Part shown: positions 1 through 17,743 of the stretch, piece by piece
Position numbering within the stretch: position 1 is the stretch's first letter
How the letters are laid out: each line of letters begins with the position of its first letter
Source: an uncultured Alphaproteobacteria bacterium
GTDB taxonomy: Bacteria > Pseudomonadota > Alphaproteobacteria > RF32 > CAG-239
Length of the DNA: 64,000 bases
Assembly: GCA_944393695.1 (NCBI GenBank)
Contig: CALYAY010000002.1
Span: 112,892-176,891 of the forward strand
Direction of reading: 5' to 3'
Notes under the pieces: generated by a model
Seen by the model: only the letters and a program-made list of their open reading frames with translations
What the model was told of the DNA's origin: nothing
Databases searched by the model: none
Position numbers and translations under genes: made by a program

Positions 1-6047
<6,047 letters not shown>

Positions 6048-6089
6048 GTATTCAATCCTTCTTGGTTATAATTCTGCGGCAATTCTGTC

Positions 6090-6116
6090 AGAAAAAACTG
6101 CACCCCGCCCGCAGAA
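6090..6116 (-). terminator. Hairpin plus T-run immediately upstream of rpoB; rplL-rpoB-type attenuator or intrinsic terminator
   Basis: The minus strand reads ctgcgggcggggtgcag followed by tttttt (the plus strand shows aaaaaa ctgcaccccgcccgcag). It lies about 50 nt upstream of the rpoB start, matching the classic partial terminator between rplL and rpoB. Confidence 0.4.
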
Positions 6117-6406
6117 GGTTAAAAAATCTAGATTTAAAAAGCAAAAATCACACCAAACCCTCGAACTTTTGTTCTCTTGATGTCGATTCGCAGAATAATA
6201 CCTTTAAAAGTCGCTTTTTTATACTCCGGTCGGACTCGGATTGCAAGCAATTTTTCACAAAATGAGTCAAGAATTTTATTCTCTTTTTTAACAACCGGCC
6301 AGAGCAGGAGTCATTTTCCGATTCTCCCTCACCAAACCGCATTTATCCGGAATTGCAAAAAAAATTAACCATCCAAACAAGGCTTATTCCCCTTGCTCAT
6401 CATCCG

Positions 6407-6760
6407 TCACAAATTACCCCAAAAGCGCCAATACAGCATATTTCCGGCCAGATAAATCGTCGGCAACGCCAACACCAGCCAATAATTTTTATTTCTCCGC
6501 AATCGCATCCGTATACCAACTGCCAGCGGAACCAAAAACAAAACAACATTTATCATTGAACGCAACACATACATCTCCCGTGTACGATAAAACAAACCGC
6601 CCCAATCTCCGCCCCAATGCTCAAAATTGCAATACATACTGTAAGCATCTTCAATCCACAAACAGACCCAAAACAAATTCCACAAAACAAAAATCAACAA
6701 AATCTTGTTTCCCAGCACAAAACGCCAAAATGCATCATATTCCTCTGAGTTATCAGCCAT
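6407..6760 (-). CDS. Hypothetical small membrane protein (tandem paralog A, about 3 TM helices)
   Basis: 117-aa ORF MADNSEEYDAFWRFVLGNK...LALPTIYLAGNMLYWRFWGNL. It shares YDAFWRFVL, W.LFWV and the C-terminal LALP.(I/V)YLAGNMLYWRFWGNL with the adjacent ORF. Confidence 0.5.
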   Translation of the reverse strand: MADNSEEYDAFWRFVLGNKILLIFVLWNLFWVCLWIEDAYSMYCNFEHWGGDWGGLFYRTREMYVLRSMINVVLFLVPLAVGIRMRLRRNKNYWLVLALPTIYLAGNMLYWRFWGNL

Positions 6761-6781
6761 ACCGTTCTCCCCCGCCTAACG

Positions 6782-7126
6782 TCACAAATTGCCCCAAAAC
6801 CGCCAATACAGCATATTTCCGGCCAGATAAACCATCGGCAACGCCAACACCAATTTATAAAAACGTATCTTCCGCCACCACATAATTACTCCCGCGACCA
6901 ACGGCACCACCAGAAACAAACCACTTTGACAAACACAACCGGCATATGCGTCAAGGCTTACATAACATTCTCCGTTACCTTCCCAATATTCAAAGTTAGA
7001 ATAAGTTTCATAAACACTGTAACCAAGCAGCCACACCCAAAATAAATCCCATAGCAAAAAGAACAGCGCCGCCTTGTTATTCAGCACAAAACGCCAAAAT
7101 GCATCATACCCCTCTTCCTCGTTCAT
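6782..7126 (-). CDS. Hypothetical small membrane protein (tandem paralog B)
   Basis: Start placed at the internal ATG (MNEEEGYDAFWRFVLNNK...). The C-terminus LALPMVYLAGNMLYWRFWGNL is near-identical to paralog A. The track ORF extends to 7300 from an upstream alternative start. Confidence 0.5.
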   Translation of the reverse strand: MNEEEGYDAFWRFVLNNKAALFFLLWDLFWVWLLGYSVYETYSNFEYWEGNGECYVSLDAYAGCVCQSGLFLVVPLVAGVIMWWRKIRFYKLVLALPMVYLAGNMLYWRFWGNL

Positions 7127-7308
7127 CTCTCCCCTCACAGTCTTAAATAAAATATAATTTCCGGCCCCGACCAAACGCTCATCTCCCGATGATAGCCTCA
7201 TTTCTAACATAAATATTCCGCAATGTCCCCTACTTTTTTGTCCCGACATCTTTTTTTCAAAAAAACCGGCAATCACACATTGCCGGTTTTTACAAAACAT
7301 CTCTCAAC

Positions 7309-7860
7309 TCAAACATTCAGCTCTTTCTTACAATAATTCAGCGCCTCCGCAATCGTCTCCCCATCCGGAAACTGATGCAAAACCCGCTCGCTCCGGTCAC
7401 TCAGAGACAGCTCTTTCAAACACCGCGGCTTAAGCTGCCCGCGCTTCTCACTGTATTGAAACTCCAGAACAAACCAGACTTTTTCTCCCTTCATTTTCAA
7501 AGGCAGCAAAAGCTTGTCCGTTTTCTCAAAATGAAAAGCATCTTTCCGACAGGAAACAATCTCACATTCCCCGACAAGGTTCCCGTAATAAAAATCTCCC
7601 CGCCGTACCGCATAGAAACACCCCAGAAACTCACCGTCTCCCAAACTGCTGACATTATAAAGTCGCACCTCGGTCGACACCAGATGAACCGGGCTCCTCG
7701 TCTCCATGGCAATGGCTATTCCTAAACCCTCTATCAAATCTGCCGGATGAATCACCGGCTGTTCCATCCTGAGAAGAACCTGACACATTCCCTCTTCATT
7801 CAGAACTTTTTCTTTTTTTCGCCGTCTTAAAGCCAAAACAATTTTTCTTAACCAATTCAT
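7309..7860 (-). CDS. Hypothetical protein (183 aa), no recognisable family
   Basis: Clean ORF co-directional with rplL and rpoB, with N-terminus MNWLRKIVLALRRRKKEK. It lies in the inserted segment between rplL and the rpoB attenuator. Confidence 0.45.
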   Translation of the reverse strand: MNWLRKIVLALRRRKKEKVLNEEGMCQVLLRMEQPVIHPADLIEGLGIAIAMETRSPVHLVSTEVRLYNVSSLGDGEFLGCFYAVRRGDFYYGNLVGECEIVSCRKDAFHFEKTDKLLLPLKMKGEKVWFVLEFQYSEKRGQLKPRCLKELSLSDRSERVLHQFPDGETIAEALNYCKKELNV

Positions 7861-8124
7861 AAAAATAAATTTTAATAAAACAAAATAATTCTCTTTCTAG
7901 ACAAAAATTATAACGTCATTCCGAAAAAGTCAAGCTTCTTCCTTCCAGACACAAAAAAAATCCGGACTACCCCAACAATCCGGATAATTTCTCAAAACAA
8001 TAACAAAAACAAATAATGTTACCGTTCAAACCATAAAAAACGGCCAAAGCCTCTCCCCACAGGGATACCGTACTTTGACCGTTCTTAATTTTATTGAGCA
8101 ACAAGCTCAAGAATTGAAGTCAGA

Positions 8125-8496
8125 TTACTTCAATTCAACCTTAGCGCCGGCAGCTTCCAATTTCTTCTTGATTTCTTCAGCTTCAGCCTTGGCAACGCCT
8201 TCTTTAACAGTCTTCGGAGCACCGTCGACCAAATCCTTGGCTTCTTTCAGACCCAGCTGGGTAATAGCGCGGATTTCTTTAATAACGTTAATCTTGTTGG
8301 CTCCGGCTTCTGCCAAAACAACGGTAAATTCGTCTTTTTCTTCGGCAGCGGCACCACCGGCAGCACCACCGGCGGCAACAGCAACGGCAGCAGCGGCAGA
8401 AACGCCCCACTTTTCTTCCAACATTTTTGCAAGGTCAGCGGCTTCCATAACGGTCAAAGCTGACAATTCATCTACTAACTTGGCTAAATCGGCCAT
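8125..8496 (-). CDS. rplL: 50S ribosomal protein L7/L12
   Basis: [32 protein letters not shown], then an Ala/Gly hinge ([20 protein letters not shown]), then the C-terminal domain ...[52 protein letters not shown]. Confidence 0.95.
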
Positions 8497-10803: not shown

Positions 10804-11310
10804 TTAATCTTTTTTCATTTTGTCCTTATTTTTCGGCAAATCGGAAGTACAATGCGGACACTTAACCGCCTCCGCCGCAATTTCCAAACAACAATACGGA
10901 CAAATCTTGGTCTTGGGCGCCGCCTTGGCCGCGTCTGCCGCCTCTTTCTTGTCTATTTTGGCTTGCAGGTTGTTAATCGCCTTAATCAGAATAAACACGG
11001 CAAACGCCACGATAACAAAGCTGATAAGCGCATTGACAAACAAACCGTAATTCAGCGTAACCGCACCGGCCGTCTGCGCCGCCGCCAAAGAATCATACGG
11101 CCCGGCCTTACCGCCTTCTTTCAATATCAGATACAAATTTGAAAAATCAACCTTCCCCAAAATCAGCCCGATAGGCGGCATGATAATATCCTTAACCAGT
11201 GAATCCACAATCTTGCCGAATGCTGCTCCGATGATAATACCGACCGCCATATCGATAACATTGCCCCGCATGGCAAATTTTTTAAATTCATTGATAAAAC
11301 TCTTCAACAT
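10804..11310 (-). CDS. mscL: Large-conductance mechanosensitive channel with a C-terminal zinc-ribbon extension
   Basis: From the internal ATG: [49 protein letters not shown]...., the MscL N-terminus, TM1 and TM2. The C-terminus ends ...[34 protein letters not shown] (Cx2C-X11-Cx2C) instead of the usual helical bundle. Confidence 0.8.
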
Positions 11311-11410
11311 ACTGCTTACCTTTCCCTGAAAAAACAAAATTACGCTGCCCTGAAAGCATATAAACATTTATCAAAAAAAGGAACTGTTTTTTTAAACAGT
11401 CCCCCTTAAC

Positions 11411-12046
11411 TTAAACCTCCGGCAACTTCCAAACCGGCCGCGCCAGATAGCGCATATGCTTGGTACAACTGCCGGTAAAAAAGCTCTTTCCCGACCGGAA
11501 ACTAAACATAAACACCAGACACGCCCCGTTCAGCTCTTCTTCTGCCCAATACCACATACCGTCAACCAACGGCTGTCCGCCGAGTTTCTCCAGCAGCGAA
11601 TTAAGCTGTATCAGCCCTTCTTTTCCGTATTGCCGGGCAAGAATTTCCCAAAAATGAAACAAACTTCCCTGCGAACAAGCCTTTTGGTCAATCTCAATCT
11701 GTGCACACGCCTGAATGGCACTGTCCCGGTTCATGGCATCTGGCAAATCTCTCAGCGTCAGCAGATATCCGCACACCACAACCCCCAACGGCCGCACTTC
11801 GGATAAAATCTCCGTTGAACGCCGCAGGTCTTCGTACAATACCTCAAAATCGAATTGCCTGGAACACTCCTCTTCCGTCCGCACTTCCCGGGGAACAAAT
11901 GTACCGCCGAAAGCCTGGGCCAAACTGTCGATATCAATGTTTAATCCGGACATAACATTCATAACTGTCCGTAAAGCCTCAATTTTTTCCATAATTATCA
12001 AATTAATAATGAATATTCCGAATAACCAAAGCACATTCTCAGCCAA
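11411..12046 (-). CDS. Hypothetical protein (211 aa)
   Basis: ORF between nusG and mscL, co-directional with both. No family recognised. An alternative internal start gives MEKIEALRTVMNV... Confidence 0.45.
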   Translation of the reverse strand: MAENVLWLFGIFIINLIIMEKIEALRTVMNVMSGLNIDIDSLAQAFGGTFVPREVRTEEECSRQFDFEVLYEDLRRSTEILSEVRPLGVVVCGYLLTLRDLPDAMNRDSAIQACAQIEIDQKACSQGSLFHFWEILARQYGKEGLIQLNSLLEKLGGQPLVDGMWYWAEEELNGACLVFMFSFRSGKSFFTGSCTKHMRYLARPVWKLPEV

Positions 12047-13568: not shown

Positions 13569-13863
13569 TTCCTCAAAAAAACCTTGTCTCCAAGATACAA
13601 ATTAATATAATACACTTTTCTCAAAAAGAACTCGGTGTCTGCCCGGAAATAACCATTCACTCCGTTTCCGCACCTTCATCCAATTCTTTCCCTTGAAACA
13701 CCTTGTTTCAAGAGTTTTCTTTTTAACCGGCATATTGACTATGATACCCCCTGAAAAACAAAAGCCCCCTGCCCTGCAGCTCTGTCATAATTCAAATAAA
13801 CTTCAAATCTGACCTATGACTTTATCTTGACTGGCAGAAACACATAGTGCAATCCACAAATCA

Positions 13864-14199
13864 TTAAACATTTCCCAACACAAAAATTAAAACAAACTGC
13901 CATACAAAAAACAAAATAATATATAATGTAGCAATCAACAAAATTTTCAACCATATTTTTAGATTGTGCATCTTTTTGATAAAATACATAAACAAATAGG
14001 TAAAAATAAAACTTATAATGGCGGCATCCATACATAGCTTATAATACACATCACCTGTTGTATTTAACAACGCTACAATTTCAGCATCCCCGATATAATT
14101 CAAATATGCAAAAAATCCTCTTACAAAGCTTAAAGGTATGACTGTAAGCAACAGTATAAAAATGACAATATGTTTTGCTTGTGTTAAAATTTTTTGCAT
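13864..14199 (-). CDS. Hypothetical membrane protein (111 aa, 3-4 TM helices)
   Basis: Hydrophobic ORF MQKILTQAKHIVIFILLLTVIPLSF... in the AT-rich island. Confidence 0.4.
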   Translation of the reverse strand: MQKILTQAKHIVIFILLLTVIPLSFVRGFFAYLNYIGDAEIVALLNTTGDVYYKLCMDAAIISFIFTYLFMYFIKKMHNLKIWLKILLIATLYIILFFVWQFVLIFVLGNV

Positions 14200-14223
14200 G
14201 TTATATATATTCTTTTCAAAATT

Positions 14224-14604
14224 CTATCGTTTATTTTGTAATTTTAAATATTCATCACACATATTTTGTAGCATATAATTTTGTGAAAATCCATCAGAAT
14301 TAACAGCCTCATAATAATCCTGCTCACTCCATGACGAAACATTTTTTCGTGATGGAGAGTTAGGACGATTATATTCATTCATAACAATATCTTCATTCTC
14401 ATTCAAAGAATTCAAACTTTCAATACCCAAAAAAAAGCCGTACTGCCAATAAAGCAATACGGCGAACAAAATTTAAGAAAATTTTCAATACAGAATAAAA
14501 CCGCAAAAAGAACACTCAATATATCCTGGACGGATCAGATGAGCAATTCTACCACAACGCGGACAAACAATAAGAAAATAGCCCTGTTTTTTCTTAGACA
14601 ACAT
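14224..14604 (-). pseudogene. Zinc-ribbon ORF (39 aa, CPRCG...CSFCG) in frame with the downstream 81-aa ORF but separated by a TGA; candidate disrupted gene, or two small genes
   Basis: ATG at 14604 gives MLSKKKQGYFLIVCPRCGRIAHLIRPGYIECSFCGFILY, then TGA at 14485-14487. The same frame continues KIFLN-LFAVLLYWQYGFFLGIESLN... (track ORF 14224..14469 starting at TTG). Confidence 0.3.
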
Positions 14605-14769
14605 AATTTCAAATAATTTAAGTGATACAATAATTTTATTTAATATTCATATAATTAACATACTTTTAATAAAAAACGAGAAATATTTTTGTCAAAAACT
14701 TAGTTGTTCACGCAAGTAGAAAGCTTGAAGCTTTCGTAGCGGCACAAACAACCTCTTTTATGGCGCCTC

Positions 14770-14844
14770 ACACGGACTCGGTTAACTTATTGATTTATAA
14801 AGAAAAAAGACGCTTTTCAGCGTCTTCATCTTGATTGGCAGGGG
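14770..14844 (-). repeat. Direct repeat copy B: duplicate of the tRNA-Trp 3' end (9 nt), its terminator hairpin and about 40 nt of flank (att-like)
   Basis: ...cacacggactcggttaacttattgatttat..aaaaaagacgcttttcagcgtcttcatcttgattggcagggg matches 17600..17676, with an A/T indel and a g/t change. Confidence 0.6.
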
Positions 14845-14864
14845 ATATAGGATAATATACGGAC
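14836..14864. repeat. 29-nt cassette-junction repeat, copy 1 (tggcaggggatataggataatatacggac)
   Basis: It recurs at 16683..16711 with 2 mismatches. It begins with the tRNA-Trp 3' fragment tggcagggg. Confidence 0.5.
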
Positions 14865-14925
14865 TTTTATTATTCCATTTATCTGAAGAATATGCTATTA
14901 TGCGTAAAAATTTGAAGGAATCAAT

Positions 14926-15459
14926 ATGACAAAATTTTATCACTATATTACCAAAGGAAATACAGCTCTAACTGAGGGGATATTGTCGTTTGCAAAAAAT
15001 CCTAATGCTGATTTAGGGTATTACTACAAGCGTACCGGCGGCGAAACAACGCATGCCGGAATTGTCAACTGGATGGAAAATTGTTTTGAAGGGCGCAGCC
15101 GTGCAATCAGAGGTTTTTCCGAACCCATTCAATGGACTGAAAAAAGCATCAATATGTTCAAACCTTTTATTGAGAACGCGGACTTGTTCTCTATTGATTT
15201 AGATGCTCTACAAAAAGACGGATTAATTGAAGCCGTTTATGTTTCACCTGCTCTCCGTCCCAATTTAGATAATGAATTACCGCAAGATTGCGATGAAAAA
15301 TTAGTCAAACTAAATTCTATTGCCAACATAGACACTTCACCGGTTGATTGGTCCGTATGTGATGAAAAATTAGGCTTAAGGTTTTCGGTCGTGCCTTACT
15401 ACTTAATCGTCATCAAGGGCGGCATCATCCCTCCCCGCTACATTCATAAAGAAAATTAA
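14926..15459 (+). CDS. Hypothetical protein (177 aa)
   Basis: ORF MTKFYHYITKGNTALTEGILSF... in the island, preceded by an AAGGAA RBS. No family recognised. Confidence 0.45.
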   Translation: MTKFYHYITKGNTALTEGILSFAKNPNADLGYYYKRTGGETTHAGIVNWMENCFEGRSRAIRGFSEPIQWTEKSINMFKPFIENADLFSIDLDALQKDGLIEAVYVSPALRPNLDNELPQDCDEKLVKLNSIANIDTSPVDWSVCDEKLGLRFSVVPYYLIVIKGGIIPPRYIHKEN

Positions 15460-15519
15460 TACAAAAATTTTATTTACATTTTTCAACATCTCCCTATAAT
15501 CGCAAAAAATTTAATTACA

Positions 15520-15825
15520 TTGTCTAACAATTATTTTGTACTAAGCTTTATGAAAACAAATTTATCTATCTGTAGCATAACAGTTGATTTTATTGATTGT
15601 GAGAGGAATAGCGTTATAAAAGCTATTGAAGATATGGTAGAAATATCTAAGCTGACCAATCCCAGCTGCAGCAAAGTTTGTGCCACATTAAAAGGCGTTT
15701 ACGTATCGGTAAACAGCCAAAGCGACATTGCGGAAACCTACAAAAAATGGGACAAAGACTGGCACGAAATGATGATAAAAAAAGAAAAGTGTTCTAAGGA
15801 AAAAACTCCTATTAGAGGCTGTTGA
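15520..15825 (+). CDS. Hypothetical protein (101 aa)
   Basis: ORF followed by a strong intrinsic terminator. Confidence 0.4.
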   Translation: MSNNYFVLSFMKTNLSICSITVDFIDCERNSVIKAIEDMVEISKLTNPSCSKVCATLKGVYVSVNSQSDIAETYKKWDKDWHEMMIKKEKCSKEKTPIRGC

Positions 15826-15843
15826 ACACTTTTACCTCAACCG

Positions 15844-15875
15844 AACCGCTTTTTCACAAGCGGTTTTTTTATTTT
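15844..15875 (+). terminator. Intrinsic terminator
   Basis: aaccgctt ttttcac aagcggtt followed by tttttttatttt. Confidence 0.5.
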
Positions 15876-16002
15876 CATACAAACTTTCCACCACAACGCC
15901 GCATTTTTTGACGATTTTGTCTAAAACGAGCTTTACACCACATTTATTCTATGATATACAAAAAGCACAGTTAACAATATTAATTAATTAAATTTATCTA
16001 TT

Positions 16003-17599: not shown

Positions 17600-17676
17600 G
17601 CACACAGGCTCAATTAACTTATTGATTTATTATAAAAAAAGACGCTTTTCAGCGTCTTCATCTTGAGTGGCAGGGG
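17600..17676 (-). repeat. Direct repeat copy A (native tRNA-Trp 3' end plus its terminator and flank)
   Basis: Counterpart of 14770..14844. It includes the terminator hairpin gacgcttttcagcgtc plus an A7 run, which reads as U7 on the tRNA strand. Confidence 0.6.
17634..17667 (-). terminator. Intrinsic terminator of tRNA-Trp
   Basis: The minus strand reads ctcaagatgaag gacgctgaaaagcgtc ttttttt immediately after the tRNA 3' CCA. Confidence 0.6.
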
Positions 17677-17743
17677 CAGAAGGATTCGAACCCTCGACAC
17701 TCGGTTTTGGAGACCGATGCTCTACCAACTGAGCTATACCCCT
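17668..17743 (-). tRNA. trnW: tRNA-Trp (anticodon CCA)
   Basis: The minus strand reads AGGGGTATAGCTCAGTTGGTAGAGCATCGGTCTCCAAAACCGAGTGTCGAGGGTTCGAATCCTTCTGCCCCTGCCA. It is 76 nt with a cloverleaf, anticodon loop CTCCAAA, T-loop GGTTCGAATCC and an encoded CCA. Confidence 0.9.

Follow-up and report, generated by a model that had tools for sequence, protein, structure and literature searches.

The junction between rplL and rpoB is among the most conserved gene neighborhoods in bacteria. In Escherichia coli, both genes belong to the rplKAJL-rpoBC operon, with an attenuator in the rplL-rpoB intergenic region. This attenuator is mentioned in PMC4324240 and PMC5371410. A 64,000-nt stretch of DNA from an uncultured gut alphaproteobacterium (the window, meaning the whole stretch analyzed) shares with E. 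coli the gene order rplK-rplA-rplJ-rplL-rpoB-rpoC, hairpins after rplL, and a structured RNA upstream of rpoB. It differs in that the rplL-rpoB spacer is ∼2.1 kb long and holds three genes, rpoB apparently has its own promoter, and several sister species lack rplL-rpoB adjacency. Moreover, unlike the E. coli attenuator, the conserved RNA in the window is a clade-specific element that adjoins the ribosome-binding site, and not a terminator. The three genes encode a 183-residue protein (p183) and two small paralogous membrane proteins (parA and parB). They are best described as an accessory island between two separate transcription units and made up of two separate modules, an anatomical reading that can be held with considerable confidence.

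Effector displacement has been documented to leave orphan immunity genes behind (PMC5361080; bioRxiv 10.1101/471110; PMC12247911), with examples in the auxiliary type VI secretion system (T6SS) clusters of Vibrio cholerae (PMC5361080) and the acquired interbacterial defense clusters of gut Bacteroidales (bioRxiv 10.1101/471110). The par genes resemble such arrays in being tandem, strain-variable, small putative immunity genes without an adjacent toxin gene, in having a sister strain that retains the toxin upstream, and in their gut setting. They differ in occupying the chromosomal rplL-rpoB gap with no T6SS cluster, integrase, or mobile-element context, and in that their immunity role is read from gene order, with no sequence relation to described immunity families. 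The Tlde1-Tldi1 pair of the Salmonella pathogenicity island 6 (SPI-6) T6SS provides a second comparison, in which Tldi1 is expressed with a sec signal (PMC9638812). For such a pair, a small protective gene is expected to come after the effector gene; in a sister lineage (contig L011), the gene upstream of a par homolog encodes a Tlde1/YkuD-type catalytic region. Unlike that pair, the window has no Tlde1 gene and the par products are predicted integral membrane proteins; no homology to Tldi1 was detected, no direct comparison having been made.

In the explanation favored here, the rplL-rpoB gap would tolerate insertions because rplKAJL and rpoBC are separate transcription units in this clade, rplL ending in tandem terminators and rpoB having its own promoter-like site and structured leader, and the gap would have collected cassettes. 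Module 1 would be p183, a monocistronic passenger gene equipped with a separate promoter-like site and terminator; its family would be clade-restricted and mobile within the genome. Module 2 would be parA-parB, encoding immunity-type membrane proteins directed against a periplasm-acting, Tlde1/YkuD-type peptidoglycan toxin. These may be orphan immunity genes, retained at this site in the absence of the toxin gene, with copy number changing by unequal crossing-over at their near-identical 3′ ends. Taken whole, immunity function included, this explanation is tentative rather than probable; the immunity function by itself, suggested by gene order, has somewhat less than an even prospect of being correct.

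The island spans roughly 6290-8120 (all positions are those of the window), with its genes on the minus strand, where the order is secE, nusG, orf211, mscL, rplK, rplA, rplJ, rplL, p183, parA, parB, rpoB. In the list below, open reading frames (ORFs) are given in amino acids (aa), TM stands for transmembrane, and hairpin stability is expressed as minimum free energy (MFE) and as a z score against shuffled sequence. All promoter and terminator activities are predictions.

8125..8496, minus strand: rplL, ribosomal protein L7/L12, 123-aa ORF (Pfam Ribosomal_L12 on the identical L001/L006 ortholog); upstream island boundary
8030..8086, minus strand: terminator-like hairpin 1 with U6, ∼40 nt after the rplL stop codon (MFE -24.7 kcal/mol, z -4.27)
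7952..7985, minus strand: terminator-like hairpin 2 with U8, from the terminator scan (MFE -16.2 kcal/mol, z -3.64)
7907..7933, minus strand: promoter-like TTGACT-15 nt-TATAAT upstream of p183, a unique exact match of putative function
7309..7860, minus strand: p183, 183-aa ORF
7255..7297, minus strand: terminator-like hairpin (CCGGCAAU/AUUGCCGG) with U7, directly 3′ of the p183 stop codon (MFE -19.6 kcal/mol, z -5.70)
7127..7254, minus strand: conserved leader from the p183 terminator to parA, fused in frame to parA in the window
6782..7126, minus strand: parA, 114-aa small membrane protein with three predicted TM segments
6407..6760, minus strand: parB, 117-aa small membrane paralog with three predicted TM segments
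6287..6406, minus strand: strain-variable segment 3′ of parB, poorly alignable between strains; approximate 3′ island edge
6218..6246, minus strand: rpoB promoter-like TTGCAA-17 nt-TATAAA, a unique match of putative function
6039..6122, minus strand: structured rpoB 5′ leader, a UUCUGC/GCAGAA outer stem enclosing an inner hairpin that has a U6 run as its loop
1884..6047, minus strand: rpoB, 1387-aa ORF (RNA_pol_Rpb2 domains on the ortholog); downstream island boundary

A preliminary description, made from the letters of the stretch alone, had reported three co-directional genes between rplL and rpoB, and p183, parA, and parB are indeed present on the minus strand as it stated. It put the inserted coding DNA at 1.6 kb, whereas the spacer measures 2,077 bp, of which ∼1.25 kb is coding. 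The ratio of nonsynonymous to synonymous substitution rates (dN/dS) between strains is 0.20-0.35 for p183, 0.05-0.17 for parA, and 0.12-0.20 for parB. Because these values lie between 0.05 and 0.35, all three ORFs are real genes under purifying selection, in agreement with their earlier treatment as coding. The parA ORF in the window forms a single 172-aa frame with the leader upstream of it. In other strains, parA begins at the Met that gives 114 aa (the ortholog P0005 is called at 114 aa in five assemblies), and the leader before it is a separate ORF of 50-65 aa in a different frame. Since its reading frame is not conserved between strains, the leader at 7127..7254 is probably non-coding. 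Synonymous divergence (dS) between strains is 0.03-0.29 (mostly 0.06-0.29) in the island, 0.011-0.024 in rpoB, and 0.035-0.060 in rplL, so that the island exceeds its flanks several-fold to ten-fold; strong codon constraint on the flanks is one possible explanation, and older or recombining alleles within the island are another. At the amino-acid level, p183 is 83-95% identical between strains versus 99-100% for the flanks, and the rplL product is 100% identical.

To place the spacer among relatives, 80 rpoB loci were taken from species-representative genomes, and the rplL-rpoB distance was measured where both genes were found (n = 70). The gap is 123-507 bp in 66 of these 70 other alphaproteobacterial loci, which bears out the premise that it is normally short. 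The remaining four (L062, L073, and the Caulobacter loci L085 and L087) have gaps of 1.1-5.1 kb and resemble the window as occasional invasions of the same junction; unlike the window, their contents are unrelated, with no p183 or par homolog in any of them. The closest representatives, L012 and L013, have an RpoB N terminus 84% identical to that of the window, gaps of 507 and 392 bp, and no trace of p183, parA, or parB in their spacers; homology to the L012 spacer resumes at ∼6286. The three genes are confined to metagenome assemblies with an RpoB N terminus 99-100% identical, always at this site, in at least 10 independent assemblies from several projects, and p183 in this species is always accompanied by at least one par gene. 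L011 is a partial variant of the island at the same site. The comparison of relatives' spacers thus reveals no core-like conservation of the three genes. The block is a species-level, strain-variable insertion, as had been proposed, and not an ancestral core arrangement.

Several observations suggest how such an insertion could be tolerated. Among the nine closest species representatives, five (L014, L016, L017, L018, and L020) have no rplL upstream of rpoB, and therefore the rplKAJL-rpoBC linkage has been broken repeatedly in this gut clade. Upstream of rpoB, these five have instead genes resembling pseudouridine synthases or methyltransferases, or large unknown ORFs. The same five genomes retain the promoter-like site and the leader without rplL upstream. 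The site is kept in position and sequence in L012, L016, and L020, and the leader also lies just upstream of rpoB in L012-L018 and L020. From these patterns, rpoBC can be inferred to be an independent transcription unit in this clade, which would explain the tolerance of an insertion in the rplL-rpoB gap.

The leader itself has comparative support. RNAalifold applied to the 80 nt before the rpoB start codon in ten relatives gives 10 base pairs, 5 of them with compensatory changes. Invariant blocks (AACC(U)UC...CGGG...GAUAGGAU...AACC) run through the element, which stands directly before the rpoB ribosome-binding site and may control rpoB translation. A covariance model of the leader (R1) matches only 9 loci of the gut clade across the 81 sources searched, and no Rfam family matches it; nor was any known RNA family in Rfam found in the rplL-rpoB spacer. 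The preliminary description had noted a hairpin with T6 at 6090-6116 just upstream of rpoB and took it for the retained attenuator. The sequence is there, but the attenuator or terminator is not. Folded alone, the element (6098-6114) has an MFE of -5.2 kcal/mol and a z score of +1.1, no better than shuffles, and its T-run is not conserved in relatives; in the window, the comparative structure places that run in the loop of the inner hairpin. An E. coli-type attenuator at 6098-6114 was accordingly rejected, T6 being a loop and not a terminator tail.

The other side of the island is bounded by predicted termination signals. The hairpin at 8030..8086 was matched by none of 200 shuffles and is kept in all four aligned strains; that at 7952..7985 differs in stem sequence between strains with pairing preserved. 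Downstream of these, the TTGACT-15-TATAAT site ahead of p183 carries 1-3 substitutions across four strain variants. The promoter scan required a 16-18-nt spacer and hence did not list this site, whose 15-nt spacer falls outside the rule. The hairpin at 7255..7297, again unmatched in 200 shuffles, is kept in all strains and, because an A-run flanks it, may act in both directions. This hairpin with U7 (z -5.7) and a 180-nt leader separate p183 from parA.

Evidence that p183 is an independent module comes from its family. The preliminary description listed the protein as unknown, and this holds for known families and folds, since no match was found in Pfam, NCBIfam, PADLOC, PHROGs, or PDB sequences. 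The protein is not an orphan. A word-indexed search recovered two close orthologs, and a HMMER profile search recovered 62 family representatives at E≤1e-3 (46 at E≤1e-10), these being 62 clusters at 50% identity, almost all of 160-195 aa and aligned end to end. p183 belongs to an unnamed, clade-restricted family of ∼180-aa proteins. An AF2 model built from a 53-sequence alignment is confident (pLDDT 89.2, pTM 0.81) and displays an N-terminal helix and an alpha/beta domain; it supersedes an earlier model from 3 sequences that was unusable (pLDDT 50). The structure prediction proposed in the preliminary description thus gave a confident model (pLDDT 89) that matches no known fold in PDB or in BFVD (viral). 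Conserved family columns are hydrophobic, aromatic, Gly, or Pro, and no polar column is conserved in ≥90% of 53 members. The first ∼20 residues form a basic amphipathic segment throughout the family, and this helix may attach the protein to the membrane. No signal peptide, hydrophobic segment, or secretion marker was found in p183. The protein is read as a cytoplasmic binding or structural protein, possibly membrane-peripheral, and not as an enzyme.

Genomic contexts of the family, gathered by exact look-ups and one metagenome scan, point the same way. In nine other contexts, the p183 homolog is always single and never beside a par-like or small-TM gene. Its neighbors there are rlmH and rsfS, with the homolog between them on the opposite strand; rplA, which it directly follows; MFS transporter and hexapeptide-repeat genes; SIMPL, flavodoxin, and TatCA genes; two different glycosyltransferases; an aldose epimerase; and LemA/DUF3137 and malate dehydrogenase genes, which lie on either side of it. 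Because its homologs stand alone in this way, p183 is unlikely to be a toxin. Family genes at L094 840-1319 and L095-L098 ∼5900-6490 lie directly after rplA and, on the opposite strand, between rlmH and rsfS-obg-rpmA-rplU. A tie between the family and translation or RNA polymerase genes was considered and dropped: counting rplL-rpoB, after rplA, and rlmH-rsfS gives 3/9 contexts (P∼0.05 at an assumed 10% background, not significant), with six further contexts unrelated. A PilZ identity also failed, as the motif seen in the window protein (RRRKK and NVSSLG) is not kept in the 83%-identical ortholog (KVSSLE) or across the family, and Pfam gives no match. In L099 (5935-6554) and L100, two 109-aa ORFs together make up a family gene of the P0007 type; a frameshift in this copy or an error of assembly is the probable cause.

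The par genes form the second module. As the preliminary description stated of its two ∼115-aa paralogs, the products (114 and 117 aa) share N- and C-terminal motifs, and they are 51% identical (E 2e-34). Hydropathy segments in parA lie at about 19-36, 60-85, and 89-107, and both proteins are predicted to be three-TM integral membrane proteins, with an aromatic-rich loop after the first hydrophobic segment; a basic loop (RLRRNKN) joins the second segment to the third. Of all residues, 21-26% are Trp, Phe, or Tyr. Neither protein matches the Pfam, NCBIfam, PADLOC, or PHROGs libraries, and the sole relative outside the species is P0006 on L011 (120 aa, 58% identical to parA). A phage or plasmid origin of the island genes was rejected, as no p183 or par relative occurs in viral contigs or plasmids and PHROGs and PADLOC give no match.

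Copy number at the site varies from one (interrupted) to two or three among strains whose RpoB N termini are 99-100% identical; the strain alignment comprises four variants. Two par genes are present in L006-L010 and in the window, and three in L005, where the middle copy combines a parB-like body with a parA-like C-terminal end. In L001, L002, and L004, parA is lost and the single parB-like copy, which also has a 12-nt in-frame deletion, reads M-K-stop-EEEYDAFWRF, making it either N-terminally truncated (GTG restart, 99 aa) or a pseudogene. Identity between parA and parB is ∼93% over the last ∼72 nt, 80% in the N-terminal motif, and 40-65% over most of the rest. Near-identical 3′ ends would lend themselves to unequal crossing-over or gene conversion, and the hybrid middle copy of L005 fits such exchange.

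The functional proposal for par derives from L011, a contig of 1,082 bp. Its rpoB leader is 93% identical to that of the window, so it represents the same site in a sister lineage. Here, P0006 sits 69 nt after a gene other than p183 that ends ...FTIHGGSVFGSAGCIDL... (the fragment is also quoted as ...RDSFTIHGGSVFGSAGCIDLADGMDDF...), whereas the ten same-species loci and the window have p183 upstream instead. Against Pfam, the fragment gives a weak Tlde1_dom hit (E 0.022). A tblastn search pairs it with a Cupriavidus ORF (E 2e-14; 45% identity, pairwise E 2e-22) and with proteins annotated as "tlde1 domain-containing" from Eleftheria (E 1e-8) and Photobacterium, and the Eleftheria homolog clears the Pfam cut-offs for both Tlde1_dom and YkuD. 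Furthermore, the H-x9-C spacing and SxGCh motif of the L011 gene agree with the active site of Tlde1a, whose residues are H121 and C131 (PMC9638812). These similarities identify the upstream gene, at the level of sequence, as encoding a putative Tlde1/YkuD-type toxin domain, with P0006 directly 3′ of it. The toxin/immunity arrangement suggested in the preliminary description therefore survives in part: an immunity-like link is found for par, and the role of toxin falls away from p183, with its lack of invariant polar residues, its terminator, and its solitary homologs.

Plasmid-borne relatives of the L011 gene have a comparable layout. Genes with the subfamily motif [FT]IHGG..PGSAGCIDL are carried by plasmids or megaplasmids in Eleftheria, Cupriavidus, Ralstonia, and Photobacterium. 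A small multi-TM protein overlaps or directly follows the Tlde1 gene in four of the five plasmid loci opened; in the fifth, from Ciceribacter, the Tlde1 domain lies inside a 653-aa protein. The loci and the partner proteins, which have 2-3 TM segments and are unannotated or "hypothetical," are as follows.

Plasmid Tlde1 loci: L104 2728-3485; L105 2620-3532; L106 1225-1973; L108 1078-1973
Cupriavidus partner: 110 aa, 3 TM segments, an aromatic loop and a basic loop
Eleftheria partner: 84 aa
Ralstonia partner: 91 aa
Photobacterium partner: 87 aa

These partners are candidate membrane immunity proteins. The par proteins have the same layout as the Cupriavidus partner. Because par lacks sequence similarity to the partners, the resemblance is one of layout and not of family membership.

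Some alternatives can be set aside with more assurance than others. That the ORFs are non-coding, decaying pseudogenes, or an assembly artifact is already refuted: the stop at codon 3 and the 12-nt deletion in one group of strains and the frame-shifting leader ORF are what such decay would look like, but the arrangement recurs across independent assemblies, dN/dS is well below 1 for all three genes, and p183 belongs to a 62-member family with a confident fold. The preliminary description placed the insert between rplL and the attenuator, riding on rplJL read-through, and a fuller version would have the island genes expressed from the rplKAJL promoters, with an attenuator common with rpoB and expression tied to growth rate. 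All the genes are co-directional, intrinsic terminators are rarely 100% efficient, and parAB has no convincing promoter. Nevertheless, this scheme is quite unlikely given two tandem terminator-like hairpins between rplL and p183 and a third after p183, conserved promoter-like sites belonging separately to p183 and rpoB, and a proposed attenuator that is unstable alone (z +1.1) with an unconserved T-run. A single operon with p183 as toxin or bacteriocin and the par pair as its cognate immunity genes would account for their adjacency and shared direction, for the constant company of p183 and par in the species, and for the faster divergence of p183 than of its flanks (83-95% versus 99-100%). It is highly improbable, as a strong predicted hairpin with U7 divides p183 from parAB, p183 homologs occur in nine other contexts among housekeeping genes with no par-like or small-TM neighbor, no polar residue is conserved in ≥90% of 53 members and no toxin domain or fold is matched, the protein has no export or secretion feature, the par homolog of L011 pairs with a different upstream gene, and p183 dN/dS is 0.2-0.35, not >1.

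The main rival to an immunity role is that these are lineage-specific genes without a part in antagonism: par would encode other envelope proteins (for membrane stress, as transport accessories, or in signaling), p183 would be unrelated, and the adjacency to Tlde1 in L011 would be a coincidence in a gap that collects cassettes. This is possible, if doubtful. It fits the absence of any family, defense, or phage library match for the three proteins, the purifying selection and low dN/dS, the frequent rearrangement of the rpoB neighborhood in this clade, a second insertion (orf211 and mscL) between nusG and rplK, and the lack of sequence similarity between par and other Tlde1 partners. Against it stand the small multi-TM proteins that follow Tlde1-subfamily genes in four of five unrelated plasmid loci, a layout repeated in L011, together with the tandem amplification, the copy variation between strains, and the interrupted N terminus, all typical of accessory genes that can be dispensed with, immunity genes among them.

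Several points weigh against the orphan-immunity explanation itself. The whole toxin link is one short contig holding the last 84 residues of the toxin gene. By hhalign, the par profile has a probability <1% against both the Cupriavidus and the Eleftheria partners, whose immunity role is itself that of a candidate, and Tldi1 is probably a soluble periplasmic protein, not an integral membrane protein. The dN/dS values are low, and nothing in them points to diversifying selection. The surroundings of the island in the window show no integrase, flanking repeat, or secretion-system gene, no convincing promoter for parAB was found by eye or by scan, and the promoters proposed for p183 and rpoB are consensus matches only. 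A tblastn search and a motif search found no Tlde1 gene or remnant in the 64-kb window; "orphan" status is provisional, as it rests on 64 kb of genome and a toxin gene elsewhere is possible.

A broader version of the orphan-immunity proposal makes par a new integral-membrane immunity family against Tlde1-type L,D-transpeptidase/carboxypeptidase effectors, with small 2-3-TM partners as the general immunity for one subfamily, orphan copies expanding and contracting by unequal crossing-over, and p183 as the first noticed member of its family. So extended, it is rather unlikely. If the par proteins are immunity proteins, they would add a membrane-embedded type of immunity to peptidoglycan-targeting Tlde1 effectors and would place orphan immunity genes in little-studied gut Alphaproteobacteria. 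Independently of this, the locus suggests that the conserved rplL-rpoB neighborhood becomes breakable when rpoBC is equipped with a promoter and leader of its own, the junction turning into a landing site for accessory genes, and p183 gives a handle on an unnamed family with a confidently predicted fold lacking a solved-structure match. Nothing here overturns current understanding.

Elsewhere in the window, orf211 and mscL (10804-12046, minus strand) lie between nusG and rplK as a second interruption of the classical cluster. No family matches orf211, which is confined to this species; both it and p183 are ∼183 aa, and a paralogous relation was rejected at an hhalign probability of 0.3%. The MscL encoded here has a C-terminal CxxC...CxxC (zinc-ribbon-like) extension, and mscL occupies the same place in L012 (76% identity). 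Next to secE, a segment at ∼13600-16000 is AT-rich (28-37% GC versus 45-55% nearby), with many short ORFs whose L006 counterparts have no Pfam match, and a tRNA gene is found at 17671-17743 (minus strand). The AT-rich segment may be another accessory island.

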